From Candidatus Woesearchaeota archaeon (lineage in GTDB: Archaea > Nanobdellota > Nanobdellia > Pacearchaeales > GW2011-AR1), in the NCBI GenBank assembly GCA_964493655.1, contig CAZBOY010000004.1:1-37849 (forward strand): a stretch of 37,849 nucleotides of DNA, in the 5' to 3' direction. The translations under genes and the position numbers were made by a program. Under the pieces are notes generated by a model. It saw nothing but the letters and a program-made list of their open reading frames with translations, ran no database searches and was not told the origin of the DNA. Shown piece by piece: positions 19,321-35,597 of this stretch (its first letter is position 1; each line of letters starts with the position of its first letter).

Positions 19321-20004
19321 TTATTTCCCCCCGCTAATCTTCTTGAGTTCTCTGAAATTGTCAATCAAAGGGTTCATTAGTTTTGAAACTGTGTTGTGCA
19401 AACTATTGAGGTCTTTTTTTATGTACTCCCCTGTTTCTCCAAACTCACTTATTTTTTTAATTACTTCTTGTTGGAGTTGTTCAATTGATTGTTCAATTCT
19501 TTTTAATCTTTCGTCGAGGTCTTTTAGTTCTTCAAGTGTGTGAGTTTTGAAGGACGAGATGTCGCCGGTTTTTTCACTAAATTCCCTAAATTTTTCTAAG
19601 ATAACTTGCTCTGCTATTTCTGCAATTGTTTCTGTATCGATTTGTGGTTGTTGAGGATAATAAGCTTGTTGAGGATATGCTTGCGGAGTTTGATAATAAG
19701 CTTGTTCGTTTCCTTGTTGAGGATATGCTTGTTCTTGGGGTGATTGCATTTGTTGCATTTGTGTTTGTTGTTCTTGTTCTTGTTCTTGAAGTGCCTGCCC
19801 AGGCATTATTGATTGCTCCATACCTTGCATTGAAGACATATCTTGTGTTGGTTGTTCTGGGGAAACAGCTTGTTTTATTTTTGATTGACTCATTGCATCA
19901 CTAATTTCTCTTGGGGAGATACCTTCATCTTCTAATCTTTTTACTATATCTGCGTCTTGCAGTCCTTGATTCTTAAAAGCAGTTACTTTATCTAGGGCCT
20001 CCAT
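19321..20004 (-). CDS. Hypothetical protein: N-terminal helical domain, Q/P-rich low-complexity linker, C-terminal coiled coil
   Basis: 227 aa. It has QEQEQEQQTQMQQMQSPQEQAYPQQ repeats and a heptad-like C-terminus. Confidence 0.5.
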   Translation of the reverse strand: MEALDKVTAFKNQGLQDADIVKRLEDEGISPREISDAMSQSKIKQAVSPEQPTQDMSSMQGMEQSIMPGQALQEQEQEQQTQMQQMQSPQEQAYPQQGNEQAYYQTPQAYPQQAYYPQQPQIDTETIAEIAEQVILEKFREFSEKTGDISSFKTHTLEELKDLDERLKRIEQSIEQLQQEVIKKISEFGETGEYIKKDLNSLHNTVSKLMNPLIDNFRELKKISGGK

Positions 20005-20014
20005 TTTTATCTTA

Positions 20015-20407
20015 TTATTTTTTAGTTTTGATAGTTTTTATTTGTTTTTGTTTTAATTTCTCGCTAATCATATCCTTGACATCTTGTATTCTTGCAAAAT
20101 CCAGTGGCTGGAAATCTTTTAGCATTCTTTCTAGAACAATTACTTCATCTTTTCTTACAAAGTTTCTGGTTTCTGATAAAATGCTTTTTACAAGAGATGT
20201 TAATTTTTCTAAGTCTTTTTGTATTTTATTTGATTGATTTCTTAATTGGTCAATTTCGCTGGTTATTTGCTCTCTTGTTGTTATTAGGTTTTTCCCGAGG
20301 AGAAGAGTTCGGTTCTTGACTAATTTGTTTCTTTCTTCTAGGTCTCTTAGACGGGTGTTGAAATCTGCAAGCAAGAATTGAATTTGGTCTTGGGGTTGCT
20401 GTTCCAT
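20015..20407 (-). CDS. Hypothetical coiled-coil protein
   Basis: 130 aa with heptad-rich sequence. It is co-directional with 19321-20004 and divergent from the ATPase gene. Confidence 0.5.
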   Translation of the reverse strand: MEQQPQDQIQFLLADFNTRLRDLEERNKLVKNRTLLLGKNLITTREQITSEIDQLRNQSNKIQKDLEKLTSLVKSILSETRNFVRKDEVIVLERMLKDFQPLDFARIQDVKDMISEKLKQKQIKTIKTKK

Positions 20408-20484
20408 GTTTATTTATAGTGGGGGTGGTTTATAATCTTTTTTAATACAACAATAATTAAAAACCTAGTCTTCTAAATAATTTT

Positions 20485-22758
20485 ATGTTATTCAAAGAGG
20501 GAACACCGTTGTATTCTTATGAAACTATCCGGGAGAGTGGGGAGAATGTGATGTATATTAATTATCTTGGGGCGAGTTTTGTTCCGTCGCTGAGTGCGTA
20601 TCCAGAGGTGATGGCTCGGACAATTGATGCTCTTAGTGAAAACTTAGATATTTCAAGAATTGTTTTTGTTCAGCAGAGAAATTATAGTTATGATTTTGAA
20701 TTTGTAAAAATGCTTGCGGACATTGCAAATCTGTATAATTTTCTTACAAAACAGGAGAAGATTTTGTCGCAGGAAAAATTGCAGTTTGCTGCTGATAGGT
20801 TTAGTGAGATTTATAATATGATGAATTATTTGATTAGCACTCTTCTTAAACAAGATCCTGTGAAGGCTTACAGGGAGATTAAGAATTTGCTGTTTAAGGA
20901 AAAAGCAGATATTGGGCGCAGAGGTGGAAGTGAAACTTATGTGAGATTTTTGGAAAAATTAATTTCTTATTTTGATAATCTTGTGTTGATTAAAAAAGCG
21001 AAAACTTTGTTTGCGAATTATCCTGTTGGAGATAGAGAAATTTATGAGGGTATTTTTCGGGCAGATGTAATGCCTAATTTTACTTTTACAAGAATGGTGA
21101 GTGAAATACCCTCGGAAGTTGAGATTATTGATCAGTACGAGATTGCGAGTGGTGCTGATAAAAGTGTGGTTACAATTTACAAACAAAAAGATGCTGCGAA
21201 ACTTATTTATCATTTGTCTCCGCCGGAATATTCTCTTTCTGAAGATCATCATATGTTGCTGAATCTTGCACGAAATGTTCTTGTTGAACACCAGCCAAGA
21301 CAGGAGGAGTTTTCAGATTCAGAGAGGACGAGGCAGGTTTTTTTTAATGTTTCGCGTGATTTGGTGCAGGATTTGGCGAATACTAAAAATATTTCTTTGA
21401 CTTACCAGGAGTTGAATAATCTTGCGAATATTTTACTTAGGCATACAATTGGTTTTGGAGTTATTGAAGTTTTGTTACAAGATGAAAATCTTCAGGATAT
21501 TGTGATTAATGCTCCTGTTTCTCTTTCTAGGATTTTTGTAAAGCATCAGGAGTTTGATGAGTGTTCGACAAATCTTGTTGTGAGTCAGGAGGATGCAGAT
21601 TCGTGGGCAGCTAAATTTCGTATGCTTTCTGGAAGAGCGCTTGACGAGGCAAATCCGATTTTAGATACTTCTTTGAATTTAAAAGAAATTGATGCGAGAA
21701 TTGCAATTGTTCAGAGGCCTCTTTCTGCAGGCGGGCTTGCTTATGCTATTAGAAGACATAGAAGTAATCCTTGGACTTTGCCTTTGTTTATTAAAAATAA
21801 AATGCTTGATGGGTTGAGTGCAGGGTTGTTGAGTTTTTTAATTGATGGTGGAAGAACAATGCTTGTTGCTGGGACAAGAAGTTCTGGAAAGACGTCGCTG
21901 TTGGGGAGTTTGCTGTTTGAAATTATGACTAAGTTTAGGGTTATAACTGTTGAAGATACTCTTGAACTTCCTGTTGCTGATTTGAGAAAAGAAGGTTATG
22001 ATATTTTATCTATGAAAGTTAGAAGTGCACTTACTGGAGAATCAACAGAGGTGAGTGCTGAGGAGGGGATTAGGGCGAGTTTAAGATTAGGGGATTCTGC
22101 GTTGATTCTTGGAGAAATTAGAAGTGAAGAAGCAAAAGCTTTGTATGAAGCAATGAGGGTTGGTGCTCTTGCAAATGTTGTTGCAGGTACGATTCACGGT
22201 GCATCTCCTTATGCTGTTTTTGACAGGGTTGTGAATGATTTGAATGTTCCTGTAACTTCGTTTAAAGCAACTGATTGTATTGTTGTGTGTAATCCTATTA
22301 AATCTCCAGATGGTTTGCATTCGTGGAAAAGGGTTTTGCAAATTGCAGAGGTTAGGAAAAAATGGACTAAGGATCCCTTGCAAGAAGAGGGTTTTGTTAA
22401 TCTTATGAACTATGATGTTAATGCAGATAAACTTGTTCCAAGTGATGATTTGATTAATGGGGATTCTGAAATTATTAAGGCAATTGCTGCAAATGTCAAG
22501 GGGTGGGCAGGGGATTGGGATTCTGTTTGGGATAATATTTTGTTGAGACAGAAAATCAAAGAGGAACTTGTTGATTATGCAGAGAAAACAAAAAAACCAG
22601 AAATTTTAGAAGCCCCTTTTAATGTTAAATCAAATAATGTTTTCCACCATATTTCTGATAAAATTTCTGAGGAAGTTGGTTTGCCTATTTCTGAGAGGGT
22701 TTTCCCTGAATGGAAGAACTGGCTGGAGAGAGAAGCGAGAAGGTTATCTTTGGGTTAG
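20485..22758 (+). CDS. Type II/IV secretion-family (T2SSE; FlaI/PilB-like) assembly ATPase with a long N-terminal extension
   Basis: Walker A AGTRSSGKTS and Walker B-like ALILGEIRSEEA. The conserved ITVEDT and His-box-like GTIHG motifs are present. Length is 757 aa. Confidence 0.85.
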   Translation: MLFKEGTPLYSYETIRESGENVMYINYLGASFVPSLSAYPEVMARTIDALSENLDISRIVFVQQRNYSYDFEFVKMLADIANLYNFLTKQEKILSQEKLQFAADRFSEIYNMMNYLISTLLKQDPVKAYREIKNLLFKEKADIGRRGGSETYVRFLEKLISYFDNLVLIKKAKTLFANYPVGDREIYEGIFRADVMPNFTFTRMVSEIPSEVEIIDQYEIASGADKSVVTIYKQKDAAKLIYHLSPPEYSLSEDHHMLLNLARNVLVEHQPRQEEFSDSERTRQVFFNVSRDLVQDLANTKNISLTYQELNNLANILLRHTIGFGVIEVLLQDENLQDIVINAPVSLSRIFVKHQEFDECSTNLVVSQEDADSWAAKFRMLSGRALDEANPILDTSLNLKEIDARIAIVQRPLSAGGLAYAIRRHRSNPWTLPLFIKNKMLDGLSAGLLSFLIDGGRTMLVAGTRSSGKTSLLGSLLFEIMTKFRVITVEDTLELPVADLRKEGYDILSMKVRSALTGESTEVSAEEGIRASLRLGDSALILGEIRSEEAKALYEAMRVGALANVVAGTIHGASPYAVFDRVVNDLNVPVTSFKATDCIVVCNPIKSPDGLHSWKRVLQIAEVRKKWTKDPLQEEGFVNLMNYDVNADKLVPSDDLINGDSEIIKAIAANVKGWAGDWDSVWDNILLRQKIKEELVDYAEKTKKPEILEAPFNVKSNNVFHHISDKISEEVGLPISERVFPEWKNWLEREARRLSLG

Positions 22759-22791
22759 AACTTCGAGGAGTTTTTGAGGGAGTGGTTGTGA

Positions 22792-22947
22792 TTATTTTTT
22801 TGATTTTGCGATTCCTAATCTTAATCTAATTGCTTCAGAAATAAGTTCAGCTCTTGAGCGATAACCCTCTTTTGCTTTCTCTATAAATTCATCTATTTTC
22901 TTGGCAAGTTCTTCTGTTATTGAAATGTTGACATATTTTACTCTCAT
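22792..22947 (-). CDS. Ribbon-helix-helix (CopG-like) DNA-binding protein (51 aa, not in the ORF track)
   Basis: Read manually on the minus strand: MRVKYVNISITEELAKKIDEFIEKAKEGYRSRAELISEAIRLRLGIAKSKK. It follows the RHH pattern of a beta strand followed by two helices. Confidence 0.6.
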   Translation of the reverse strand: MRVKYVNISITEELAKKIDEFIEKAKEGYRSRAELISEAIRLRLGIAKSKK

Positions 22948-23004
22948 TTGCTTTCATTTACAGGTGAGCGAAAGACTTATATATCATTTTTCACGCATAG
23001 GTGA

Positions 23005-23232
23005 ATGATAAAAAATAAGAAAGCTGGAGCCGGGGCAGTAATTGTCATAATCCTTTTAATTTTATTAGCTATCGCTGCTTATTTTATTATTAAAGGTGGA
23101 GCTGTAGAACAAGCTATAGATCCCTGTGAAAGAGAGTTTCAAAATTGTAATCATGGTTGTGGTGAAGGAATACTAAGTAGTGTTTGTAAAGAAAAATGCT
23201 CATATGATTATAGGAAGTGTCAGAATGGGTAA
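23005..23232 (+). CDS. Small Cys-rich protein with a class III-like signal/anchor
   Basis: MIKNKKAGAGAVIVIILLILLAIAAYFII is followed by an 8-Cys ectodomain. TATA-like box 25 nt upstream. Confidence 0.5.
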   Translation: MIKNKKAGAGAVIVIILLILLAIAAYFIIKGGAVEQAIDPCEREFQNCNHGCGEGILSSVCKEKCSYDYRKCQNG

Positions 23233-23464
23233 AAAGAAAAACCCATTAGAGATTATTGGTATAATCTTAATTATTTTAGGGGTATTAATAATTTTGTCTG
23301 CATTTCCTTTATTTCAACAAACATTTTTTCCGGGAATTGAAACTCTTGCTGAAAAAGTTCCTTCAATAAGTGCTACTAGAATAATCATAGGTTTTGTAAT
23401 ATCTATTTTAGGATTAGTTACTTATTTAGGAGAAAAAGGATTAAAAATTTTGATAGGAAAATAA
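23225..23464 (+). CDS. Small 2-TM membrane protein
   Basis: MGKKKNPLEIIGIILIILGVLIILSAF... It overlaps the upstream gene by 8 nt. Confidence 0.45.
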   Translation: MGKKKNPLEIIGIILIILGVLIILSAFPLFQQTFFPGIETLAEKVPSISATRIIIGFVISILGLVTYLGEKGLKILIGK

Positions 23465-23466
23465 AA

Positions 23467-24033
23467 ATGAAAAATAAACACTTTTGGTATATCCTCGGGG
23501 GGATTGTGATTGCAACTTTAATTTTATTAATTATTTTTGCTAATGTAAACAAACAACCCAATTGTAAAATTATTCAAACTCCTTATGAAGAACAAGAATC
23601 ATATATTGATTATGAAACTTATAACGAACAAAATTGTGAAGAATCTCCTTTAACTTATACGACTCGTCCAGGAGATATTAGGTTACAGGGAGGAAGATGG
23701 GGGGACGATTCCTGTTCAAAAAATGGACTTAACCAATGTCTTATTGTTTGGGATGTTATCATTAAAAATACTGATACACGGGGTGGGGAATTCTATATGT
23801 ATTGTATCTATTCAGATGGCTCAACTTATAAGGCAACGAGACCTTCTTGGATTGATCCTGGAGAAGAAGAATCTATGCAATGTTTTAATACTTTTTCTTC
23901 AGGAGAACTTTACATACAAGATACAAAAGTATTTCCCCCAAATAAGGAAGAATGTTTAACTACCTCTCAACAAAGACCTATTACAAAATACAGAACAATT
24001 ACTAAGTATAAAGAAGAAACCGTTTGTGATTAA
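23467..24033 (+). CDS. N-terminally anchored extracellular protein
   Basis: 188 aa with a single N-terminal TM (WYILGGIVIATLILLIIFA) and a Cys-containing ectodomain. Confidence 0.5.
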   Translation: MKNKHFWYILGGIVIATLILLIIFANVNKQPNCKIIQTPYEEQESYIDYETYNEQNCEESPLTYTTRPGDIRLQGGRWGDDSCSKNGLNQCLIVWDVIIKNTDTRGGEFYMYCIYSDGSTYKATRPSWIDPGEEESMQCFNTFSSGELYIQDTKVFPPNKEECLTTSQQRPITKYRTITKYKEETVCD

Positions 24034-24034
24034 A

Positions 24035-24301
24035 ATGACTTTTAAGAAAGGATTTTGGCATAGATATTATAAAGCAAAAAGATTATCTGGAGAAAAATTT
24101 TTCAAAAATAGATTTAAAAATATTGAGATGGTTATTTTTGCTTTCTTAGTAGCAATTGTTCTCTCTTTTGCAGATGATTTATTTATCTTTAATAGAGGAC
24201 TAAATCCCTCAACTAAAACAAAATTTTTGGTTGTAATTTTTATAATATCTGTTCAATTATATAGACATTTTTTATATAAGAAATATTATCCTAAGGTTTA
24301 A
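24035..24301 (+). CDS. Small basic membrane protein
   Basis: Basic N-terminus followed by two hydrophobic helices. Confidence 0.4.
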   Translation: MTFKKGFWHRYYKAKRLSGEKFFKNRFKNIEMVIFAFLVAIVLSFADDLFIFNRGLNPSTKTKFLVVIFIISVQLYRHFLYKKYYPKV

Positions 24302-24304
24302 ATT

Positions 24305-24410
24305 TGTCCCAAAAACAAGACTTAAGTCCAAAAAATGAGACAAGATTAAGAGAAAGGTTTAAATAATCTTTTTGTCTCAAAAAAGGGACTTAAGTCTATA
24401 AAATGGGACA
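24305..24410. promoter_or_regulatory. Two copies of a 38-bp composite palindrome TGTCyC-N8-GACTTAAGTC-N8-GrGACA (candidate operator)
   Basis: The perfect 10-bp palindrome GACTTAAGTC occurs at 24319-24328 and 24387-24396. The second unit overlaps the ATG (24403) of the HTH-NTase gene. The TATA-like GGTTTAAATAAT lies between the two units. Confidence 0.55.
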
Positions 24411-24900
24411 GAATGTTGATAAGATTTTAGAGGTTTTTTACGAAAATCCTGGAAAGAGTTTTACTGTTCGAGAGTTGACTAAACTGACTAAAGTTCCTCG
24501 GGCAACTCTTCATAAAAAACTTTTGGATTTGAAAAAACAGAGATTGATTACAAAGGAGAACAAAGCAGAGAGTAATTTGTTGTTTGAAGCAAAGAAAATT
24601 AATTATTTTATCGAAAAAGTTATTGATTCTGGTTTGATGGATGAACTAATTAAAAATCTTAATCCTTCTGCGATTGTTTTGTTTGGGGGGATTAGGAAAG
24701 GAGAATCTGACAAAGAAAGTGATATTGATTTATTTGTTGAGAGTTCGATTGAAAAGGAATTAGATTTGAGTAATTTTGAGAAAAAACTGAAACATAAGAT
24801 TGATTTGTTTGTTAAACCAAGTATTAAGAATTTTCATGAGGGTTTATTTAATAATATTCTTAATGGGATTAAATTATATGGGAGTATTAAGATAAAATGA
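24403..24900 (+). CDS. wHTH-fused nucleotidyltransferase (MNT-like antitoxin)
   Basis: N-terminal wHTH (FTVRELTKLTKVPRATLHKKLLDLKKQRLI). NTase motif in VLFGGIRKGESDKESDIDLFVE. Confidence 0.7.
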   Translation: MGQNVDKILEVFYENPGKSFTVRELTKLTKVPRATLHKKLLDLKKQRLITKENKAESNLLFEAKKINYFIEKVIDSGLMDELIKNLNPSAIVLFGGIRKGESDKESDIDLFVESSIEKELDLSNFEKKLKHKIDLFVKPSIKNFHEGLFNNILNGIKLYGSIKIK

Positions 24901-25322
24901 ATTTGATGCCTTGGGAATTATGTGAAAGAGATTTTATTAAAATTGTAAAGAGGGATGATGAACGAATTAAGACAATAATCAAGATGGCTTTGAAGAGGTT
25001 AGATAAAATTAAGAGATATAAAATGGAAGATGAGATTTCTTTTATTGTAGAAGATTATTATGAGATTATAAAAGAACTTTTAGTGGCTTATTTACTTAAA
25101 AATGGATTGAGATCAAAAAACCATCAGTGTTTGATTAGTTATTTTTATAAGAAAAATCCTCAATATGAAAGAGAGGTCCAGATTATTTCTCAGATGAGTT
25201 ATTTTAGGAACCGATTGAATTATTATGGGGATGCTATTCCAAAAAAGTTTTATGAAACTCATGAGAAAGAGTTTAAGAAGATAATTAAATTGTTATTTGG
25301 GGTTTTAGAGGTGAAGGGATGA
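24897..25322 (+). CDS. HEPN-domain protein (toxin partner)
   Basis: It overlaps the NTase gene by 4 nt. The protein is all-helical and has the YFRNRLNYYG motif typical of HEPN partners of NTases. Confidence 0.6.
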   Translation: MNLMPWELCERDFIKIVKRDDERIKTIIKMALKRLDKIKRYKMEDEISFIVEDYYEIIKELLVAYLLKNGLRSKNHQCLISYFYKKNPQYEREVQIISQMSYFRNRLNYYGDAIPKKFYETHEKEFKKIIKLLFGVLEVKG

Positions 25323-25460: not shown

Positions 25461-27641
25461 ATGGTTAGTACAGAAGACATAATGAAAAAATATGGGGCAA
25501 GGATTGAGTCGCAGATGAACTCTTATTCTCCGAGCCAGAAGTTTAGTCAGAGTTATGAAAAATTTAGGGCAAGTATGATTCCAGAATTTACTCGTTATGA
25601 AAAATGGTGCAAGGCACTGGGGAATCTTTTTCACATGAAAGTTGCTGAGAAAGATAGGCTTGTTGTTCAGAGGCAGATTGAAATTGCTCATCTTAATTTA
25701 ATACCTTCAGAGGTTTTGGTTTTTGGAGTTGTTGTTTTATTTTTGAGTTTATTTGGCGGGCTTTTAGCAGTTGTTGCTGGGTGGTTGCTTTTTCTTGAAA
25801 CTCCCACTTGGGCTAATTTTCCTATTGGACTTAGTTTTTTGATTATTATTATTTCTATGTTTTTGTTTTACTATGCTTACAAAGCTCCACAGAGACTTGC
25901 ACAGCAGTGGAGATTGAAAGCGTCGTCGCAGATGGTTCCTGCAATTTTGTACATTGTAATTTATATGAAGCATACCTCAAATTTTGAAAAAGCTGTTTCA
26001 TTTGCCTCAGAACATTTGCCAGATCCACTTGGTTTGGATTTTAGGAAAATTTTCTGGGATGTTGAAGTTGGTAGATTTTCTTCAATTAAAGATAGTGTTG
26101 ATAATTATTTAGAAACTTGGAGAGATTATAGTATTGAATTTATTGAGGCGTTTCATTTGATTGAGAGTAGTTTATATGAGCCGTCTGAGGAGAGAAGGGT
26201 TGTTGTGTTGGAGAAATCTCTTCAGGTTATTCTCGACGGGGTTTATGATAAAATGCTTAAGTATACTCACAATGTTAAGTCGCCTCTTACAAATCTTTAT
26301 ATGCTTGGAATTGTTTTGCCGACGCTGTCTCTTGCGATTCTTCCTCTTGCTTCAACAATGTTACAAGGTATGATAAAATGGTATCATGTTTTGCTTTTGT
26401 TTAATATTCTTGTTCCTTTTTTAGTTCTTTATTTGACGACTAATGTTATGATGGAACGACCGGGTGGTTATGGTGAGACAAGTTTGCTTGAGAAAAATCC
26501 TCTTTATCCAAAATATAAAAGCCGGAAGCCTTATATGATTGGAATCTTGATTGCGATTCCTTTTTTGATTCTTGGATTTCTCCCTTTGCTTTGGGCTTAT
26601 ACTGATTTGCCTTTGTGGATGGGGATGCAGAGAGATTATTCCTGGTCTTCAATAGGATTTGGATTTTTAGGAGAGTCTGGAATTTTTGGGATTATGGAAA
26701 CTACTGATGGAATTAAAGGGCCTTTTGGAATGCTTTCTCTTTTGTTGAGTTTGCTTGTTCCTCTTTCTATTGCTATGATTTTTATTATTGCTTATCATGT
26801 CAAAACAAAAGATTTGATTAAGTCGAGGGAGATGTATAAAGAAGTTGAGAATGAGTTTACAAGTTCTCTTTTCCAGTTGGGGAATAGGCTTGGCGACGGC
26901 ACTCCTGCTGAAATTGCTTTTGCTAAAGTTGCAGGTTCATCAAAGGGGACTGCGACTGAAGGATTTTTTAGATTAGTTAATCAAAATATTCAGCAACTTG
27001 GGATGTCTCTGAATGATGCGTTGTTTAATCCTAAACGAGGAGCTGTTATTTTTTACCCTTCTGAATTAATTGCAACTTCAATGAAGATTTTAGTTGAGAG
27101 TGTTAAAAAAGGTTTGAAGGTTGCTGCGAGAAGTTTGATGTCAATTTCAGAATATGTTAAGAATATAAAAAAGATTAATGCGCGGTTGAATGATTTGCTT
27201 GCAGATATTATTTCTGATATGAAATCGAACATGGTTTTTTTAGCTCCGATGCTGTCGGGAATTATTATTGGACTTGCGGGGATGATTACTGCGATTCTTT
27301 CTAGTTTGTCTGCGATGTTTGCATCTGGTGGTTTATCTGCCGAGGGTGTTGATGCAATTGCTGGAAGTGGCGGGATTGAATCTCTTTTAGGAATTTTTGA
27401 TATAACTCAGATGATTCCTCCTTACTGGCTTCAGATTGTTGTTGGTTTTTATTTAATTGAAATTGTGTTTATTCTTACTTCAACTCTTGTTACAATTCGT
27501 TCTGGAAGAGATAAACTTGCGACAACTTATGAGATTGGGAGAAATCTAAAAACCTCGATTATACTTTATGTGATTATTGCTCTTGGTTCGATTATTGGAC
27601 TTGGTTTGATTGGTGCTGTGGCTTTGCAGGGGTTGGTCTGA
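25461..27641 (+). CDS. Polytopic membrane platform protein (FlaJ/TadC/PilC-like), putative
   Basis: 726 aa with two clusters of TM helices separated by soluble helical domains. It lies in a locus with a T2SSE ATPase, an A24 peptidase and pilins. The assignment rests on architecture and context, not on a recognised motif. Confidence 0.6.
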   Translation: MVSTEDIMKKYGARIESQMNSYSPSQKFSQSYEKFRASMIPEFTRYEKWCKALGNLFHMKVAEKDRLVVQRQIEIAHLNLIPSEVLVFGVVVLFLSLFGGLLAVVAGWLLFLETPTWANFPIGLSFLIIIISMFLFYYAYKAPQRLAQQWRLKASSQMVPAILYIVIYMKHTSNFEKAVSFASEHLPDPLGLDFRKIFWDVEVGRFSSIKDSVDNYLETWRDYSIEFIEAFHLIESSLYEPSEERRVVVLEKSLQVILDGVYDKMLKYTHNVKSPLTNLYMLGIVLPTLSLAILPLASTMLQGMIKWYHVLLLFNILVPFLVLYLTTNVMMERPGGYGETSLLEKNPLYPKYKSRKPYMIGILIAIPFLILGFLPLLWAYTDLPLWMGMQRDYSWSSIGFGFLGESGIFGIMETTDGIKGPFGMLSLLLSLLVPLSIAMIFIIAYHVKTKDLIKSREMYKEVENEFTSSLFQLGNRLGDGTPAEIAFAKVAGSSKGTATEGFFRLVNQNIQQLGMSLNDALFNPKRGAVIFYPSELIATSMKILVESVKKGLKVAARSLMSISEYVKNIKKINARLNDLLADIISDMKSNMVFLAPMLSGIIIGLAGMITAILSSLSAMFASGGLSAEGVDAIAGSGGIESLLGIFDITQMIPPYWLQIVVGFYLIEIVFILTSTLVTIRSGRDKLATTYEIGRNLKTSIILYVIIALGSIIGLGLIGAVALQGLV

Positions 27642-27729
27642 TGATTTATTTTTGATTGAGGGAGAGTCTGAAAGAAAATTTTTTATTTTAGATAGATAAC
27701 TTTTAAGAAAAATTGATTTAGGATTATTA

Positions 27730-27895: not shown

Positions 27896-28013
27896 AAAAT
27901 AATTTTTTTTGAAAACTATCTTAGTTTTTCTTTTGAAACACAAATTTTCTTTTTTCTAAAAAGAAAAGAGGGAAAAGATTTATAAATAACAAAAAACAAA
28001 TAATTAAAAGAAG

Positions 28014-28541: not shown

Positions 28542-28709
28542 ATGAAATTTAAACGCGGTGATTTTTCAATTGGGGAACTTGTTACAATTATTATTGTGAT
28601 TGTTGTTTTTGCTTTGTGTGTTGTTTTTATTTGGCTGTTGAAAGACAAGGGTTTTGAAGGTGCTCTTGCTACAATTAAAAATCTGCTTCATTTTGGAAGG
28701 GCGAAATGA
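28542..28709 (+). CDS. Mini pilin-like protein (55 aa, not in the ORF track)
   Basis: Read manually: MKFKRGDFSIGELVTIIIVIVVFALCVVFIWLL... It has a KRG motif followed by a hydrophobic helix. TATA-like box 25 nt upstream. Confidence 0.5.
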   Translation: MKFKRGDFSIGELVTIIIVIVVFALCVVFIWLLKDKGFEGALATIKNLLHFGRAK

Positions 28710-28713: not shown

Positions 28714-30276
28714 ATGAGAAAACTTATTTTAAATAAAAAAAATAAAAGAGGTACTGAATGGACTGTTGGGAAACTTCTTACTCTGATTCTTGCTGTTGTT
28801 TTTATTGTGTTGATTGTTTGGGGTGTTTCGAGTAAAGCATTTTTGCCGTTGAAGGAAAGATTATCTGGGATGTGGGATAATGCTAAGGGTTTGTATTCTG
28901 GTATTTTTGGTGGGGGGGATGATGGTGGGGATGGTGGGGGGGACTCAAGTGCGGTTGAGAATTATGCGGCGCAGGGGGGTACTGTAAGGATTCTTACAAT
29001 TTCAATAGTCCCTTCTGGAGAAAATGCTTATGATTTTTATAATACTAAAATACAAACTAGACCATCTTATCTGGATCCTTCAGAAAATAGGTCTTTAGTA
29101 ATCTTAGATAAAATAATTAATCAAGAAATTCTTACAGATAGTTATAAGACTATAACAATTAGTTGTGAAGACTTATCTAAGAAAGAAGGGGTGCAAAAAT
29201 ATTCCTTAGAATTAATTCCTAAAGATCTAACTTCTGTTGAACAAAAACAAGAGATTAAAAATTTGGTGATTAATAAGATGTCAGAAAACTGTAATGATGT
29301 TCCGAAAGAAGAATTATTTAGGATGAGAGAGATTTATTTTCTTGCAGATTCTAATAAGGAAGGAGAGCCTAAAAAGATTACAGAGGCTTTGGTAGGAGAT
29401 TCTATTTCAGTTGTAATTAATAATCATAATTGTGCTTCAATTAAGGTTTACGGGGCTGCTGGAAGAGATGTCTCTTTAGGCCAATCAACAAAAGAGGAGT
29501 ATGCGGTAATCTCTCTAGGAGAATTAGTAAAGGTTGAGGAATCTACACTTATAGAAGGTTCTAAGGATTTTTCTTTTGAAATTGTTTGTTTTTCTGTTGA
29601 AGGAAAAGAAGTTTTAAGCTTTACAAAAACAATTAAAATAATCAATGAAAATTTTGTTGAGCCGCTTGTAGAAACTCCTGAAGAAGACACACTTGTTAAT
29701 AAACTCTGGACATTTGATAGTACAATAGCTCAGGTTGAATCTATGAGTGGAAAATATTCTGCAAAACCTGAAAACAAGAAATTTGTGGATTCTCTTTTTG
29801 ATTATGGTTTAATTACCTCAAAACAATATAATGAAATAAATGGTGGTAGCACTTGGGATTTTAATTGGGAGGAAAATATGGATTATGTTAAACAAGTTTT
29901 AAAGAATAATAAAATGCAAAAAATAATTTCTGGAAAAGAAGTTATTCCGGAACCGGATTATAAAGTTGTTCTTAATAATAACATCAAAAGTTCTGAGACA
30001 CTTAAGTTAAAACAAGGATATAAAATAATTTTAAATTACTTTAATGTAAATCGTGATATTGAGATTGTTAGTTTAGAAAAAAACAAAGTTTCTGTTAAAA
30101 TTCAAATATCCTCGATAACTTCTAATACTTTTTATCTGGCCCCAAGTAGTTATAAAAATCTTGAGGTAGATAGTTCTCATGAGGGCGATGATGTTAAAAT
30201 TTTAGTGGGGGCCATATCTGGGTTTGATTATGATAATTCATTAATGATTGAAATTAAATTGGAAAGTTTGCAGTAA
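28714..30276 (+). CDS. Large pilin-like / pilus-associated protein with a class III signal peptide
   Basis: MRKLILNKKNKRGTEWTVGKLLTLILAVVFIVLIVWG, then a GGGDDGGDGGGD linker and a ~430-aa ectodomain. Confidence 0.6.
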   Translation: MRKLILNKKNKRGTEWTVGKLLTLILAVVFIVLIVWGVSSKAFLPLKERLSGMWDNAKGLYSGIFGGGDDGGDGGGDSSAVENYAAQGGTVRILTISIVPSGENAYDFYNTKIQTRPSYLDPSENRSLVILDKIINQEILTDSYKTITISCEDLSKKEGVQKYSLELIPKDLTSVEQKQEIKNLVINKMSENCNDVPKEELFRMREIYFLADSNKEGEPKKITEALVGDSISVVINNHNCASIKVYGAAGRDVSLGQSTKEEYAVISLGELVKVEESTLIEGSKDFSFEIVCFSVEGKEVLSFTKTIKIINENFVEPLVETPEEDTLVNKLWTFDSTIAQVESMSGKYSAKPENKKFVDSLFDYGLITSKQYNEINGGSTWDFNWEENMDYVKQVLKNNKMQKIISGKEVIPEPDYKVVLNNNIKSSETLKLKQGYKIILNYFNVNRDIEIVSLEKNKVSVKIQISSITSNTFYLAPSSYKNLEVDSSHEGDDVKILVGAISGFDYDNSLMIEIKLESLQ

Positions 30277-30280: not shown

Positions 30281-30850
30281 ATGAAAAACAAACGTGGTTT
30301 CCTGGTATCAAAAGAAACAGTTGAATTGATTATTGCAGTGGCGATTATTGCTCTGGTTATTTTTGTTCTTTATAATGTTCTTATTGGGTCGTGGAACAAG
30401 GAGGATGAAACAGCTAAATCTTATCTTGAAACTTTGAAAAAAGAGATTGCTAAGGCAGATGCTGGGGGGGTTGGGGAGTTTGAGATGTGGCAGAAGACTG
30501 ATGAGACTTATTTAGTTGCTTATTTTGGAGATAAAGTAGGTATGAAAATTGGCAAATTTGATTTAATTCCAGATAAGGCCCAGAAAAATAATCTTTGTAT
30601 TTGTTATTCCTCTGGCAGCAAAGTTTTATGCAAGCCGTGTGTTTCTTTGAAATATCCTGTTAGATTTGATGGTTTTCCTGAGGAGACCTTTATTCAATTT
30701 GGACAAAAAGTAAAAATAACAAAATCAAAAGATAAAGGGGAGTATGTTTTTATACTGCAAAAAGATTCTACTAAAAAAGTAGAAGAACCAATAACCCCCC
30801 CATCTGAAGGATCAGATATTAGTGGAGGGGGAGGTGGTGAGGGGTGGTAA
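30281..30850 (+). CDS. Pilin-like protein with a class III signal peptide
   Basis: MKNKRGFLVSKETVELIIAVAIIALVIFVLY. The C-terminus has a Gly-rich tail. Confidence 0.6.
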   Translation: MKNKRGFLVSKETVELIIAVAIIALVIFVLYNVLIGSWNKEDETAKSYLETLKKEIAKADAGGVGEFEMWQKTDETYLVAYFGDKVGMKIGKFDLIPDKAQKNNLCICYSSGSKVLCKPCVSLKYPVRFDGFPEETFIQFGQKVKITKSKDKGEYVFILQKDSTKKVEEPITPPSEGSDISGGGGGEGW

Positions 30851-30867: not shown

Positions 30868-30981
30868 ATGAATAAGGCGGCACACGGAATGGTGGATAAG
30901 ATTATCACATTAGTTTTATACATTGCGCTTATTATTGCTGCAGGGGCGGCGGTCTTTTTGCTTGTGACTAAGATTACATGA
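30868..30981 (+). CDS. Mini hydrophobic protein (37 aa, not in the ORF track)
   Basis: MNKAAHGMVDKIITLVLYIALIIAAGAAVFLLVTKIT has a pilin-like N-terminal helix only. Confidence 0.35.
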   Translation: MNKAAHGMVDKIITLVLYIALIIAAGAAVFLLVTKIT

Positions 30982-31367: not shown

Positions 31368-32285
31368 ATGGACAAAAAAGTAAATTTCTCTTATGAGAAA
31401 TTTTCATGTTTTCCAAAACCTCTGCGGTTTTGTAAAAGAGGAAGTGAGAAGTATTATATTCTTATTTCAATTATCCTAGGGATTATGATTTTAGCTTTGT
31501 CTTTGTTTTATATTTTTCACGAGTTTTTTACAAGTGAAGAGTTGGATTGGGAGAGTTGTCGGCAGAGTATTGTTCTGAGGAATACAATGCCTACTGCAAG
31601 CAGACTTGCGACAGTTAAAATTGAACAGCTAAAAAACCAATTTCCATTAAAATGTAAGACTCAGGTTATAAACCTTGATTGGGACGATAAGAAAGGTTCT
31701 GATGGGGATGATAATTATAAACAAAATATAGATTTTTTCATAAAGACTATTGCAGATAATATGGCTCAGTGTTGGTCTCTTGTTGGGGAAGGAAAATATA
31801 ATATTTTTCCCTCGAACATTATTACACAAAAAAAGAATTGCATAATTTGTGCAAGAATACATTTTAGTGAAGAAGCTATAAAAAAAATCTCCCCTGATTC
31901 AACCTCTAAATATACTCCCCTATTTATTAGGGAATATTTAGCTACTCATGATATTAATGGAAATTTGCTTTCAACTAATGAAATTAATGAGTTTATGAAT
32001 TTTGAAAAGATAAGTAAGAATAGTCTTGCAAATTTTTTACGTTATAGTACGTCGGATTTTTTTATATTTTTAGATGATAATAATTGGGAATCTGGTAAAT
32101 ATGGTATGAGATTTGCAATTAGCCCTTTAGATGGAGATATTTTTATTGGAAGCTATTTTTATACTAATAATAATGTTGAATTGGCATGGCCCCCTGTTGT
32201 TAAATACTCTTATGCCTATCCTTTTTTTGCACAAGTTGGAAAAGATGATATTAGTTCGTGTAGTATAGAATCAATCCCAGCCTAA
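31368..32285 (+). CDS. Pilin-like protein with the extended conserved leader SCFPKPLRFCKRG
   Basis: MDKKVNFSYEKFSCFPKPLRFCKRG is followed by SEKYYILISIILGIMILALSLFYIF. TATA-like box 24 nt upstream. Confidence 0.65.
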   Translation: MDKKVNFSYEKFSCFPKPLRFCKRGSEKYYILISIILGIMILALSLFYIFHEFFTSEELDWESCRQSIVLRNTMPTASRLATVKIEQLKNQFPLKCKTQVINLDWDDKKGSDGDDNYKQNIDFFIKTIADNMAQCWSLVGEGKYNIFPSNIITQKKNCIICARIHFSEEAIKKISPDSTSKYTPLFIREYLATHDINGNLLSTNEINEFMNFEKISKNSLANFLRYSTSDFFIFLDDNNWESGKYGMRFAISPLDGDIFIGSYFYTNNNVELAWPPVVKYSYAYPFFAQVGKDDISSCSIESIPA

Positions 32286-32288
32286 AAA

Positions 32289-32705
32289 ATGAAAAACAAA
32301 AACCACTTAGATGCCTCAAAAAGATACTCCTGCTTCCCAAAACCTCTGCGGTTTTGCAAAAGAGGCGACATAGTATATCAGACAATTACTCATCTTATTT
32401 TGATAACTCTTATTTTTGCTATTTTCTTTCTTGCTGCAACAAGCAAGGTTACATCTAAGGTTGTGAAGCAACAGGTTCTGGAAAAGCAGACTGCCTTGTT
32501 GATTGATGCTGCTGATAAGGGGATGACTTTTATTATTGATAAGACTTATCTTGAGGGTGGAACAATTGGGAATATTGAATTAAAACAAGGCAGGGTTTTT
32601 GTTTATATTGCTGGACAGGGGTTTAGTAAAGGATATCCTTATTTTTCTCGTTATGATGTGAGTTTGGTAAAAGAGGAGGACAGATATCTGATAAAAATAG
32701 GATGA
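32289..32705 (+). CDS. Pilin-like protein with the extended conserved leader SCFPKPLRFCKRG
   Basis: MKNKNHLDASKRYSCFPKPLRFCKRG is followed by DIVYQTITHLILITLIFAIFFLAA. Confidence 0.65.
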   Translation: MKNKNHLDASKRYSCFPKPLRFCKRGDIVYQTITHLILITLIFAIFFLAATSKVTSKVVKQQVLEKQTALLIDAADKGMTFIIDKTYLEGGTIGNIELKQGRVFVYIAGQGFSKGYPYFSRYDVSLVKEEDRYLIKIG

Positions 32706-32845
32706 GAAAAAATAGTTGTTTTAAGAATTGGAAATTTTTTGATTTTTGCAGATACCCACTAAATTCGACTTTGTCGAGACCCGCCCTTCTTCCACACCAC
32801 TGCCACCCCAGAAGTTTGTCAAAAATAAAAATTTCCAATAAGTTT

Positions 32846-33436
32846 ATGAAAATAAAAGGGAAAAAAGCAGTTGCAGGGGAAATGATTTTAACACTTTACA
32901 GAATAGTTTTAGTTTCTATTATTGCTGTTTTTGTTCTTGGTTTTGCTTCTTTTGCATATGATTTTTATATTGAAGCACGAGATATTGAAGCTGGAATTTT
33001 AGCAAAACAAATTGTGGATTGTCTCGCTCCTGAGGGTTCTGTTAATTTGCTTTCTTTAGTTGGAAACGAAAATAAAATTTTAGATTATTGTGGATTTAAA
33101 AATATGGATAGGATTTATGCAAAGGTTTTGATTTTAGATGGTGCTGAAAATGAAATAGAAAAATTAGAACAAGGAGATTCAGGGGCTTTGTGGATGCTTG
33201 AGATTTATAAAGAAGAGAGTGAGGCACAGGCAAAAAATACCCCTGAATATGGTCCAAAGTATCTTCCGGATAAATATGGGGTTCCTAAAGAACAAACAGA
33301 GAATATCAAAAAATATGTTCCAGGACATTTTGTTTCTGAAAAATATGGGGTTTATGAGGTAGCGATTATTGATGGAAAGAATCCTGCATATGGTGGGGAA
33401 TTAAAAGTGGAGGTTTTTGTTGGACATGAATTTTAA
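32846..33436 (+). CDS. Pilin-like protein with a class III-like signal
   Basis: MKIKGKKAVAGEMILTLYRIVLVSIIAVFVLGF. The ORF is open from 32702, so a longer form is possible (see findings). Confidence 0.55.
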   Translation: MKIKGKKAVAGEMILTLYRIVLVSIIAVFVLGFASFAYDFYIEARDIEAGILAKQIVDCLAPEGSVNLLSLVGNENKILDYCGFKNMDRIYAKVLILDGAENEIEKLEQGDSGALWMLEIYKEESEAQAKNTPEYGPKYLPDKYGVPKEQTENIKKYVPGHFVSEKYGVYEVAIIDGKNPAYGGELKVEVFVGHEF

Positions 33437-33731
33437 ATCATTTTCGAAGAAGGCAGTTGTAGGAGCTTCTATAGCTACGATAATTGTAACAATTGCAATT
33501 GTTTTATTATTAGTTGTTTATGCAATTCTTGGGGTAATTGTTAAGAACACTCGTGGGGCTCCTAAAGAATTTAATTCTCAATTAAAAGAAAGCGAGAAGC
33601 TTGAGATAGAATTTAATAATTATTTTTCTAATTTTAAGAAATTGACAAAAGCGAGAAAAATGATTTGGCTTGAAAATACTAATGTTGATGCAGCTTTACA
33701 AATCACTGGATGGGGGAAAAATGAAAAATAA
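33426..33731 (+). CDS. Small pilin-like protein
   Basis: MNFKSFSKKAVVGASIATIIVTIAIVLLLVVYAILG. It overlaps both neighbouring genes by about 11 nt. Confidence 0.5.
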   Translation: MNFKSFSKKAVVGASIATIIVTIAIVLLLVVYAILGVIVKNTRGAPKEFNSQLKESEKLEIEFNNYFSNFKKLTKARKMIWLENTNVDAALQITGWGKNEK

Positions 33732-34299
33732 AAAAGCAAATTTCTCTTATGAGAAATTTTCATGTTTTCCAAAACCTTTGCGGTTTTGTAAACGCGGACA
33801 GTTTTTTGCACTTTATTTGTTTGTCTTAACTTTGTTTATGTGTGGTTTGTCTTTTGTTATTTATTCTATTCAACAAGAAGATATGGAGAATACAATTGTG
33901 TCTCCTATGCCTGTGCTTCAACTTCAAGATGAACAAGAGCTTTTTGAAATTTCCGAGGGTGTTTTAATTAAAAATTCTGTTTGTGAGTTTAAATATAGAG
34001 ATTATAATCAAGATTTATCTGAGGAGATTAAACAACAAATATTGTATAGGTATTATGGAGAATTATTTGCTTTTTTATTTGCAGATACTTATAAGACTTC
34101 CACAGATGGAGGCGATTTAGAATTATTAGCAAGTTTCTATAGTGTTAGTCAATCTGGAAAAAATGTTGTTGTTAAAAGAAGAGCAAAGATTAACAGAAAT
34201 TTAATTCCCTTAGAAATAAAAGGAAAGAATAATTTTCCTGTAAAACTTGAATGGGTTTTTGAAAAAACTTATAATATAAATTTGAAGGATTGTTCTTAA
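33721..34299 (+). CDS. Pilin-like protein with the extended conserved leader SCFPKPLRFCKRG
   Basis: MKNKKANFSYEKFSCFPKPLRFCKRG is followed by QFFALYLFVLTLFMCGLSFVIYSI. Confidence 0.65.
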   Translation: MKNKKANFSYEKFSCFPKPLRFCKRGQFFALYLFVLTLFMCGLSFVIYSIQQEDMENTIVSPMPVLQLQDEQELFEISEGVLIKNSVCEFKYRDYNQDLSEEIKQQILYRYYGELFAFLFADTYKTSTDGGDLELLASFYSVSQSGKNVVVKRRAKINRNLIPLEIKGKNNFPVKLEWVFEKTYNINLKDCS

Positions 34300-34300
34300 G

Positions 34301-34435
34301 ATGTCTGATTATGTAGAAGTTGGAAGGAGAAAAACCAAAGGCGATAAAAAAGCTAAGGTGCGGTATAAGATTTACAAGAAAGGCGGGAAGTATCGGAGCA
34401 AAAATGTTGACGAGGGGAAGGGTAAAAAGAAATAA
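34301..34435 (+). CDS. Small Lys-rich basic protein (44 aa, not in the ORF track)
   Basis: MSDYVEVGRRKTKGDKKAKVRYKIYKKGGKYRSKNVDEGKGKKK. The ATG is 2 nt after the upstream stop. Confidence 0.3.
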   Translation: MSDYVEVGRRKTKGDKKAKVRYKIYKKGGKYRSKNVDEGKGKKK

Positions 34436-34466
34436 TTAAAAACAGGGGTTGGTTGTTGTAGATAGG

Positions 34467-34574
34467 ATGAAAATAAGTAAAAAAACATTGGAGATATTGA
34501 ATTATATTGCTCTTATAATAGGTTTTGTAGCCATGGGAATCCTTATTTATGCAATAATAAAAAGTCTTGTTTAA
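34467..34574 (+). CDS. Mini membrane protein (35 aa)
   Basis: MKISKKTLEILNYIALIIGFVAMGILIYAIIKSLV has a single TM helix. This is an ORF prediction only. Confidence 0.3.
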   Translation: MKISKKTLEILNYIALIIGFVAMGILIYAIIKSLV

Positions 34575-34575
34575 A

Positions 34576-34761
34576 ATGCAAGAAGAATTTTTTGATTGGA
34601 GTATTATTGTTTTGAATTATTTAATATTTGTATTGATTTTTATTAGAACCTTGAGGACTGATTGTTTTAATACTTTTGATTTAAGCGTTACATTTATAGG
34701 GCTTGGTGCATCTATTTTATTATTAATAATTAAACTAATCAACAAAAAAAGAGAAAAATGA
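34576..34761 (+). CDS. Small 2-TM membrane protein
   Basis: MQEEFFDWSIIVLNYLIFVLIFIRT...ILLLIIKLINKKREK. It overlaps the peptidase gene by 4 nt. Confidence 0.4.
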   Translation: MQEEFFDWSIIVLNYLIFVLIFIRTLRTDCFNTFDLSVTFIGLGASILLLIIKLINKKREK

Positions 34762-35597
34762 ATTTTTTATTTTGGATGTTTTTAGCTGGAATTGTTGTTG
34801 CGAGTTTGCAGGATTTGAAAAGGAGAGAGGTAGATAATTGGTTGAATTATCTTTTGCTTATTGGTGGGGCTGGTTTTTTAATTTTTGATTCTATTTTTAA
34901 TATGGATTTTAATATTGTCTTAATTGGATTATTTTGCTTTGGGATTATGTTTGTTCTTGGAAATTTGTTTTATTATGGGCGGGTGTTTGCAGGGGGGGAT
35001 GCAAAATTGTTGATTGCAATGTTTGCTCTTTTTGTAGGTTCTTCTTTGATTGCGAGTTTGCAGAACATTGGGATTTTTATAATATTTCTTTTGTTTGGGG
35101 GAGCGGTGTGGGGTGGGGTTTATGGGGGTGGGCTTGTTTTTCTTAATTTTAAGAAATTTACTAATCAATTAAAAATAGAATTTAGAAAATATAAGAGATA
35201 TTATTCTATTTTTTTATTTATCTTTGTTCTGCTTGTGGTTCTTATTTTTCTTGATAATCTTTTTTTGGTATTAGTTTTGTTTTATATTTTGTTTATTTTG
35301 CTTTTTATTTTTGCAAAAGCACTTGAAAATTCTGCAATGCTCCGGCGGGTTAATTCTCGGGATTTACGCGAGGGAGATTGGATTGTTGAAGATGTGCGAA
35401 TTGGAAAGAGAATTGTTAAGTCAAATTGGGAAGGGTTGACTAAAAAAGATTTGGAATTATTAAGGGGGGGGCACAAAAATGTTTTAGTTAAGGAAGGGAT
35501 TCCTTTTGTTCCTGGATTTTTAATTGCTCTTATTTGTTATGGGTTTTTAGCAGAGAGTTTGTTAGAGATTGTTAAGGAATTCTTGGCTTTAATTTAG
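34758..35597 (+). CDS. A24-family prepilin/preflagellin aspartic peptidase (PibD/FlaK/EppA-like)
   Basis: The first catalytic Asp context is VASLQDLKRREVDNW and the second is FAGGDAKLLIAMF (GxGDxK). It is polytopic, with a soluble insert before the last TM. Confidence 0.8.
   Translation: MNFLFWMFLAGIVVASLQDLKRREVDNWLNYLLLIGGAGFLIFDSIFNMDFNIVLIGLFCFGIMFVLGNLFYYGRVFAGGDAKLLIAMFALFVGSSLIASLQNIGIFIIFLLFGGAVWGGVYGGGLVFLNFKKFTNQLKIEFRKYKRYYSIFLFIFVLLVVLIFLDNLFLVLVLFYILFILLFIFAKALENSAMLRRVNSRDLREGDWIVEDVRIGKRIVKSNWEGLTKKDLELLRGGHKNVLVKEGIPFVPGFLIALICYGFLAESLLEIVKEFLALI

Follow-up and report, generated by a model that had tools for sequence, protein, structure and literature searches.

A locus that probably encodes a type IV pilus-like machine, conserved across Pacearchaeota/Woesearchaeota-type DPANN archaea

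The archaea of the Pacearchaeota and Woesearchaeota are ultra-small, abundant and as yet uncultured, and are thought to live attached to other cells. The stretch of DNA considered here, referred to throughout as the window, comprises positions 1 to 37,849 of contig CAZBOY010000004.1 (GenBank assembly GCA_964493655.1), from a Candidatus Woesearchaeota archaeon. It is AT-rich (GC ~32%) and archaeal, and the nearest homologues of its proteins are found in metagenome-assembled genomes labelled Pacearchaeota, Woesearchaeota or Nanoarchaeota (DPANN archaea). Within the window, a first-pass annotation had described positions 19321-35597 as a type IV pilus-like locus rather than an archaellum, built from a T2SSE ATPase, a candidate platform protein, an A24 prepilin peptidase and a run of proteins with class III signal peptides. 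All of the genes it named are present where it had placed them, and the core parts, along with the class III run, bear out that description. The locus is flanked by genes for XPF/ERCC4, a Hef-type helicase, TrmB, EF-1beta, an RPA-like OB-fold protein and a HIT protein.

The relatives used for comparison comprise 80 species-representative loci, in which the platform protein is 50-72% identical to that of the window, and three metagenome loci, giving 83 in all. The 80 were collected with the platform protein as the single query; 39 loci are full-length, and the window proteins were searched against the related loci by tblastn. Pilin-like genes were sought with a FlaFind-like, six-frame scan of the whole 37.8-kb window (the class III scan), which required [KR][GA] among the first 36 residues, with no hydrophobic stretch ahead of it and a strongly hydrophobic 15-mer after it. 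The core genes and the pilin-like genes that lie between them are listed below, with lengths in amino acids (aa). A slash marks the predicted leader cleavage site, and all pilin-like entries are matches of the class III scan.

20485-22758, + strand: secretion/assembly ATPase of the FlaI/TadA/GspE superfamily, 757 aa (Pfam T2SSE, 5.5e-14)
25461-27641, + strand: polytopic platform protein, 726 aa, divergent T2SSF (PilC/TadC/FlaJ-type), with two cytoplasmic helical-bundle domains
28014-28502, + strand: pilin-like, 162 aa (pil162), leader MVNKKA/Q; in 41 of 83 loci
28542-28709, + strand: Flp-sized pilin-like peptide, 55 aa (pil55), leader MKFKRG/DFSIGE
28714-30276, + strand: pilin-like, 520 aa (pil520), leader ...KNKRG/TEW, linker rich in Gly/Asp, large extracellular region
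30281-30850, + strand: pilin-like, 189 aa, leader MKNKRG/F, conserved motif ETAKSYLxTLKKEIAKADAG; in 22 of 83 loci
30868-30981, + strand: mini pilin-like or single-pass membrane peptide, 37 aa, leader MNKA/A (the weakest motif of the set)
31368-32285, + strand: pilin-like, 305 aa (pil305), 25-aa leader ...SCFPKPLRFCKRG/SEKYY; in 50 of 83 loci, the widest conservation of any pilin-like protein here
32289-32705, + strand: pilin-like, 138 aa, extended leader ...SCFPKPLRFCKRG/D; in 21 of 83 loci
32846-33436, + strand: pilin-like, 196 aa, leader MKIKGKKA/V; in 25 of 83 loci
33426-33731, + strand: pilin-like, 101 aa, leader ...SKKA/V; positional orthologues in related loci L001 and L002
33721-34299, + strand: pilin-like, 192 aa (pil192), extended leader ...FSYEKFSCFPKPLRFCKRG/QFF; in 20 of 83 loci
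34758-35597, + strand: class III signal (prepilin) peptidase of the A24 family, 279 aa (Pfam Peptidase_A24, 3.1e-8)

The nucleotide-binding motifs of the ATPase are intact, with a Walker A motif (GTRSSGKT463), an Asp box (EDTLE490), a Walker B motif (LILGEIR540) and a His box (TIH569), in agreement with its first-pass assignment. By sequence, its matches among solved structures are the GspE of Archaeoglobus fulgidus (afGspE; 2oap, 1.7e-25), CpaF (1.8e-20) and FlaI (2.3e-15). These alignments span only residues ~208-601, which in the best match, afGspE, include the N2 and catalytic domains. Unlike afGspE, the window ATPase is ~250 aa longer, and its first ~200 residues (to ~207) match no solved structure and form a lineage-specific N-terminal extension. 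Subsystem-specific N-terminal ATPase domains are a general theme of a 2026 survey of archaeal systems (10.64898/2026.04.22.720090), and the extension seen here is alike. Among NCBIfam models, the protein scores 127.5 bits against FlaI, for which the equivalog cutoff is 550, and 116 against TadA. As the FlaI score is far below its cutoff, the protein is a member of the FlaI/TadA superfamily and, by that criterion, not an archaellum motor. It is found in 33 of the 39 full-length relatives.

The 726-aa protein is less readily recognized, and by its own sequence has no match in Pfam, NCBIfam or a solved-structure search. Its homologues number more than 4000 clusters at ~70% identity, some of them named ‘TadB’ by the Joint Genome Institute (JGI), and an exhaustive search returned 1040 representatives. 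Pfam T2SSF matches 29 of 56 full-length homologues (about 22-55% identity), with a best E-value of 3.2e-10, and among solved structures a profile of these 56 best matches the cytoplasmic domain of EpsF (E 0.24, residues ~459-510). An AlphaFold2 (AF2) model built on the homologue alignment has a mean predicted local distance difference test score (pLDDT) of 87.5 and a predicted template modelling score (pTM) of 0.85. In Foldseek, EpsF, OutF and the N-domain of PilC each align locally with ~115-120 residues of this model at probabilities of 0.97-1.0, and the superpositions have target-normalised template modelling (TM) scores of 0.64-0.74 with a root-mean-square deviation of ~3 Å. Poor whole-chain Foldseek E-values are expected here, owing to the comparison of a 726-residue query with 110-residue targets. 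Additionally, the N-terminal half of the protein aligns with the C-terminal half in register, if weakly (hhalign E 1e-3), which fits the usual two-repeat architecture of T2SSF proteins. Judged by transitive homology and predicted fold, the protein is thus a divergent platform of the PilC/TadC/FlaJ type. The first-pass annotation had set beforehand that the lack of a T2SSF-like fold would count decisively against it; that fold was found in the cytoplasmic domains.

The peptidase, likewise called correctly at the outset, carries both catalytic aspartate contexts, D19 and the GGD81 motif, together with a weak Arc_PepC match at its C-terminus. It is not FlaK, for which it scores 30.2 bits against an equivalog cutoff of 330. 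Its gene is present in 34 of the 39 full-length related loci.

The class III scan gave 14 matches, which include exactly the 11 start positions of the first-pass annotation (23005, 28014, 28542, 28714, 30281, 30868, 31368, 32289, 32846, 33426 and 33721). The other three are two internal-start artefacts and a polytopic 783-aa protein at 14373, the sole other real match. Ten of the 11 genes form a tight, same-strand block of 7.1 kb between the platform and peptidase genes, in which the gaps run from -11 to +41 nucleotides (nt), save for two larger intergenic regions. TATA-like boxes placed heuristically ~29-35 nt upstream of 28014 (-35), 28542 (-29) and 31368 suggest that the block comprises at least three transcription units, and that 28014 has a promoter of its own.

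Orthologues of the pilin-like proteins retain the sequence around the cleavage site. Among 14 homologues of the 162-aa protein the K[AG]Q site is conserved, and the mature helix, SLTTILLMVLG...GFSTGW, is nearly invariant. An AF2 model of this protein (pLDDT 77) predicts a 32-residue N-terminal helix (11-42) and a small, compact, Cys-rich alpha/beta head, and so has the general shape of a pilin. It is the likely major subunit, owing to its position as the first gene in the block, its putative promoter and its invariant helix, with the Flp-sized 55-aa protein as the alternative. The positional orthologues of the latter in L001 and L002 have a C-terminal motif, NLLHFGR, in common. Homologues of the 305-aa protein have leaders of 6-10 aa with K[KR]G at their end, and the mature proteins start with a conserved [SDA]EKYYIIISLILG; the 305-aa protein itself has no match in Pfam or among solved structures. 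The 520-aa protein, a candidate tip or adhesin subunit, has no match in Pfam, NCBIfam or solved structures, and its positional orthologues are of 380-607 aa with the N-terminus TEWTVGKL in common. Positional counterparts of the 37-aa peptide, of 38-43 aa, are also present in L001 and L002.

The arrangement is not peculiar to this window. Pilin-like families recur in 13-30 of the 39 full-length loci, with the 520-, 55-, 37- and 101-aa proteins found by tblastn in 0-4. Of 24 related loci in which the platform gene is upstream of the peptidase gene, 19 keep a pilin block, of 4.2-8.3 kb with 6-13 class III-type open reading frames (ORFs). Across all 24, with the five that lack the block counted, a median of nine class III ORFs lies between the platform and peptidase genes, as against a median of one in the rest of each locus, which is ~twofold larger and was counted on both strands. 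The clustering is thus far beyond chance. The block of the window, with ten pilin-like genes in 7.1 kb, falls within the range of its collinear relatives, so that the locus is typical of its clade and not oversized, as it had first been termed. In ~9 more distant relatives (L044, L053, L056, L060, L063, L064, L069, L076 and L077) the platform gene alone is inverted, and these are otherwise collinear across the Hef-to-RPA block. The ATPase and platform proteins are among the most conserved of the neighbourhood (median identity among relatives 66% and 60%, respectively), as against 44-45% for EF-1beta and the HIT protein. They are as conserved as the neighbouring replication/repair genes.

From 18 of the related loci, 135 class III proteins were scanned for pilin, archaellin and other domains. 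A ConA-like lectin domain (Laminin_G_3, 3e-22) is carried by one class III protein, L028:12319-13449, and a further lectin-domain (Laminin_G_3) gene, whose product has a pilin-type N-terminus, lies just after the peptidase gene of L002 (19554-20696). This suggests that the lectin-domain class III proteins of relatives are glycan-binding pilus subunits. The window's pil520 was compared with the lectin-domain protein of L028, and a relationship was rejected, as the two are unrelated. One MACPF_D2 match (1.4e-5) also arose among the 135 proteins; it could be traced to no ORF in two further scans.

A complete archaeal machine for a type IV filament (type IV pilus-like) is, in our view, the probable product of the locus, in the form that is conserved across Pacearchaeota/Woesearchaeota-type DPANN archaea. 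In such a machine, ~10 prepilin-like proteins would enter the membrane via their N-terminal hydrophobic helices, and the A24 aspartic peptidase, through D19 and GGD81, would cut the basic leader after [KR]-[GA]. A hexameric FlaI/TadA-type ATPase would dock onto the two cytoplasmic, T2SSF-like helical bundles of the platform, and a surface filament would grow as ATP hydrolysis pulls mature subunits from the membrane and they polymerise by way of their N-terminal helices. Either the 162-aa or the Flp-sized 55-aa protein would serve as the main subunit and the remaining ones as minor or priming subunits, with the 520-aa and 305-aa proteins carrying surface-exposed domains, probably for attachment to host cells or surfaces. 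Adhesion or host contact is a plausible function, which fits the DPANN lifestyle and the lectin-domain relatives, and the sole direct hint of it is provided by the lectin domains of related loci, there being none in the window itself. The type of machine and its mechanism are already well known and are not conceptually new; its significance lies mainly in the fact that most of its parts escape standard annotation, in archaea presumed to be cell-attached.

Several observations weigh against this interpretation. None of the 11 pilin-like proteins of the window matches a Pfam or NCBIfam family, those of pilins and archaellins included, which together with the unmatched platform agrees with the first-pass remark that many components have no recognizable family. 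Likewise, none of the 135 related class III proteins matches a pilin or archaellin family of Pfam. The head of pil162, the only pilin head modelled, has no solved pilin or other significant match in Foldseek. As no pilin fold or family was matched, pilin status rests on the N-termini, on genomic context and synteny, and on conservation, and it is from the sequences that we infer leader cleavage and filament formation. The 37-aa and 55-aa ‘mini-pilins’ could instead be plain single-pass membrane peptides. No adhesin-type domain was detected among the window's own proteins with Pfam, NCBIfam or solved structures. In five relatives (L027, L033, L035, L037 and L040) the A24 gene directly follows the platform gene, and the pilin block is absent there. 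Furthermore, a groundwater study stated that type IV pilus (T4P) components are ‘missing in DPANN genomes’ and on that basis assigned the pili seen on ultra-small cells to bacteria of the candidate phyla radiation (CPR; 10.1101/2020.05.14.094862). Such statements probably arise because the platform and all of the pilins are invisible to routine family annotation. Judged from this locus and its recurrence in many relatives at the species level, at least the Pacearchaeota/Woesearchaeota group has a full system that such annotation overlooks.

Of the other explanations, the one that survives best is that the core machine makes only a short pseudopilus, or piston, in place of a long adhesive pilus, for DNA uptake (as in bacterial Com systems) or for protein export (as in type II secretion). 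For a DPANN cell with a dependent metabolism, this would be a source of nucleotides or a means of delivering effectors. The order of the genes, from ATPase and platform through many small pilin-like genes to the peptidase, resembles that of comG/comC and type II secretion system (T2SS) operons; there is one ATPase only, the ‘minor’ subunits are many with none obviously dominant, and a conserved and highly basic 44-aa protein (34301-34435) is encoded within the operon. However, in neither the window nor the syntenic blocks examined was a gene found for a ComEC/ComEA-like channel, a DNA receptor or a secreted substrate, and class III proteins of 305-520 aa, along with the lectin-domain proteins of relatives, are better suited to surface display or adhesion. 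We therefore hold a pseudopilus to be unlikely.

A second explanation dispenses with the pilus altogether: the ATPase, platform and peptidase would anchor or organise class III surface proteins in a bindosome-like assembly, as proposed for the Sulfolobus Bas system. Several of the putative substrates are indeed large and globular, unlike small pilins, and the 2026 survey found class III signal peptides on binding proteins to be widespread in archaea (10.64898/2026.04.22.720090). This assembly is nevertheless very improbable, given a BasE equivalog score of 61 bits against a cutoff of 1000, no substrate-binding-protein family in the 11 window or 135 related class III proteins, and no adjoining ABC transporter genes. 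An archaellum, that is, a motility filament, with highly diverged parts is effectively refuted: its ATPase, platform and peptidase superfamilies (FlaI/ArlI, FlaJ/ArlJ and FlaK/ArlK) are homologous to those found here, and FlaI and FlaK are the best NCBIfam models for the ATPase and peptidase, but both scores are far below their equivalog cutoffs (127.5 against 550, and 30.2 against 330), afGspE and CpaF outscore FlaI as matches of the ATPase, no archaellin (PF01917), FlaH, FlaF/G or significant FlaC/D/E/X was found in the scanned window ORFs with Pfam and NCBIfam, much as first noted, bar FlaC_arch, which two of the 39 orthologues of the 227-aa coiled-coil protein (described below) match at a sub-threshold level, and the homologous loci are equally without archaellins (0 of 135 class III proteins in 18 loci).

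Beside the core and the pilin-like genes, the locus contains or adjoins a number of smaller conserved genes:

19321-20004, - strand: cytoplasmic protein, 227 aa, with a small N-terminal helical domain, a Q/P-rich linker and a C-terminal coiled coil
20015-20407, - strand: coiled-coil protein, 130 aa, divergent from the ATPase gene
34301-34761, + strand: three small conserved ORFs upstream of the peptidase gene (44, 41 and 64 aa)
34301-34435, + strand: the first of these, an extremely basic (K/R-rich) 44-aa protein inside the pilin/peptidase operon; in 17 of 83 loci (tblastn)
34449-34574, + strand: the second, a small membrane protein of 41 aa; in 5 of 83 loci (tblastn)
34567-34761, + strand: the third, a small membrane protein of 64 aa; in 6 of 83 loci (tblastn)
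17303-19071: three tandem paralogues of ~160-175 aa, each with four transmembrane segments, with the common motif PFLLxFxxxFAILQKxKxLG

The coiled-coil pair is conserved, with an orthologue of the 227-aa protein in 29 and of the 130-aa protein in 28 of the 39 full-length related loci. Neither Pfam nor solved structures gave more for the 227-aa protein than non-specific coiled-coil matches, and the DUF7295 match (sub-threshold, 1e-3) and the ZapA-like match (weak, 3e-3) of the 130-aa protein are both non-specific; profiles of 38-39 orthologues of the two proteins likewise gave generic coiled-coil matches only. The pair keeps its divergent contact with the ATPase gene even in the rearranged loci L042 and L050, and as this adjacency survives rearrangement, it provides modest evidence for a functional tie to the ATPase, of which the 227-aa protein is a candidate accessory or regulatory partner. 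The two genes had been counted among the components of the pilus system at the outset. They are real, conserved and beside the ATPase gene; their assignment to the system goes no further than this tight divergent linkage.

The three small ORFs upstream of the peptidase gene have positional counterparts in L001 and L002, and their start and stop codons overlap neighbouring genes. The 44-aa basic protein could bind nucleic acid. The four-transmembrane paralogues match no family, and in 27-28 of the 39 full-length related loci they keep their place upstream of the coiled-coil pair. As the entire neighbourhood is syntenic, linkage alone cannot place them in the pilus system.

Three of the pilin-like genes (31368, 32289 and 33721), otherwise unrelated, carry a 69-nt repeat, at 31374-31442, 32298-32366 and 33730-33798, of which the first and third copies are 94% identical. 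The repeat forms an in-frame leader extension, ...FSYEKFSCFPKPLRFCKRG, and gives leaders of 25-26 aa as against 6-10 aa in orthologues; the L002 orthologue of the 192-aa protein, for example, has the short leader MRNKRG/QFF. As DNA, it contains two perfect short hairpins. Over the 13-codon core SCFPKPLRFCKRG, however, the first and second copies differ by five synonymous and no non-synonymous substitutions, which argues for selection on the peptide and renders a purely RNA or DNA hairpin unlikely. A widespread DNA element was also considered and rejected, as the 20-nt core gave 16 chance matches in unrelated, GC-richer metagenome contigs and none in a pilin leader. The repeat was not found in the 80 related genome loci, and different extended leaders, with FSCF-like motifs, occur in other genomes (L001 and L011). 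Candidate roles for the extended leaders are sorting and regulated processing; alternatively, the insertion may be tolerated because this part of the protein is cut off in any case.

Two intergenic regions also stand out. The first, of 372 nt (27642-28013), precedes the first pilin gene and contains four short hairpins and a G-rich tract, GGCGGGGGCGGGGTGGTGGGGTGGTGGGG. It may contain a structured non-coding RNA: its minus strand folds well (z -5.45), although it matches no Rfam family, and its sequence is not conserved in relatives. At the matching site, L001 and L002 have an extra pilin paralogue of 112-117 aa. The second, of 140 nt (32706-32845), lies between two pilin genes; its C-rich core is enclosed by terminal inverted repeats of ~22 nt (32727-32748 and 32820-32839). 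The element resembles a small insertion akin to a miniature inverted-repeat transposable element (MITE), and L002 has no gap at the matching site.

Among known systems, the locus most closely parallels the archaeal T4P, such as Methanococcus Epd, Haloferax PilA/PilB/PilC and ‘system 1/2/4’ (PMC4858521; 10.64898/2026.04.22.720090), which likewise consist of an ATPase, a TadC/FlaJ-type platform, an A24 peptidase and [KR][GA] pilins, with several pilin paralogues per locus. Gln is found at the +1 position of pil162 and pil192, as in EppA substrates. Unlike system 1, which has two platform genes, the locus has only one platform protein, of 726 aa, and the Pfam T2SSF model fails to detect it. It further differs from known archaeal T4P in that its pilins match neither Class_IIIsignal, Pilin_N nor any other family, that its core is directly adjoined by ten pilin-like genes and the peptidase gene, that a conserved divergent coiled-coil pair adjoins the ATPase gene, and that three of the pilins have leaders of 25-26 aa. 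Resemblance to the bacterial Tad/Flp system is also apparent in the second-best solved match of the ATPase (CpaF), in the ‘TadB’ name given by JGI to some platform homologues, in the Flp-sized 55-aa pilin-like gene and in an A24 peptidase without a methyltransferase domain. Tad/Flp systems differ in having TadB and TadC where the locus has one platform with a weak internal duplication, and the locus has many large pilin-like proteins. The Tad accessories (secretin, TadZ and TadD) were not detected in the window, and the Flp motif G/xxxxEY occurs in no leader context.

Previous surveys touch on these lineages only in part. The census of archaeal T4P by Makarova et al. (2016; PMC4858521) predates them, and noted nanoarchaeal ATPases without identifiable pilins. 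In the MacSyFinder survey of Sivabalasarma and Albers (2026; 10.64898/2026.04.22.720090), ‘a few DPANN’ are placed in system 1, the Aap-like group and subsystem 4A. It is possible, if doubtful, that the present locus represents an unclassified and clade-defining DPANN subtype of type IV filament that serves as the main host-contact organelle of Pacearchaeota and Woesearchaeota, with its leader insert under selection at the level of the peptide. This tentative proposal draws on the platform that evades T2SSF detection, the private ~200-aa N-terminal domain of the ATPase, the coiled-coil pair and the ~10 pilin families unlike known pilins. Were it true, the 19-aa leader insert SCFPKPLRFC..., acquired in common by three subunits of this particular genome, would imply a further sorting or regulatory step that depends on the leader. 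The locus also supplies a defined set of genes and cleavage-site motifs with which to search metatranscriptomes, proteomes and cryo-electron tomography (cryo-ET) of DPANN-host pairs.

The span 19321-35597 as first proposed is correct for the core and the pilin block; ~2.5 kb inside it is a non-conserved insert:

22792-25322, mixed strands: variable insert between the ATPase and platform genes, ~2.5 kb, outside the conserved system
22792-22947, - strand: ribbon-helix-helix (RHH)/CopG gene (Pfam RHH_1)
23005-24301: four small membrane ORFs, one of them (at 23005, 75 aa) class III-like
24403-25322: nucleotidyltransferase (NTase)/HEPN pair, toxin-antitoxin-like (Pfam NTP_transf_2 and a weak HEPN match)

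None of the four small ORFs has a tblastn relative in the 83 related loci, and the insert as a whole is next to without counterparts in relatives. The ORF at 23005, first counted with the pilins of the locus, accordingly retains its class III-like N-terminus and loses its place in the conserved system. The cargo of relatives between the ATPase and platform genes differs, with other small genes, an acetyltransferase and RHH-like genes, as would be expected of a hot spot for insertions. The start of the NTase gene lies within a tandem duplication of 68 nt (24303-24361 and 24371-24429).

A second non-conserved island, at 9834-17300, contains a gene for a Fic protein (11935-12948), another NTase/HEPN pair (13038-13654) and the gene for the 783-aa polytopic surface protein (14373-16724), in which a class III-like N-terminus is combined with a Big_13 Ig-like domain. 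A 180-aa ORF (11344-11886) is similar to the N-terminal part of this protein, and neither of the two has a relative in the 83 related loci. The 783-aa protein was rejected as an extra pilin, its class III-like N-terminus notwithstanding, as it is polytopic and lies in a non-conserved island. Over the whole window, GC skew on the + strand is strongly positive in all 2-kb bins (0.10-0.43) and the cumulative skew climbs monotonically, a pattern consistent with a single replichore arm and a strong coding-strand bias.

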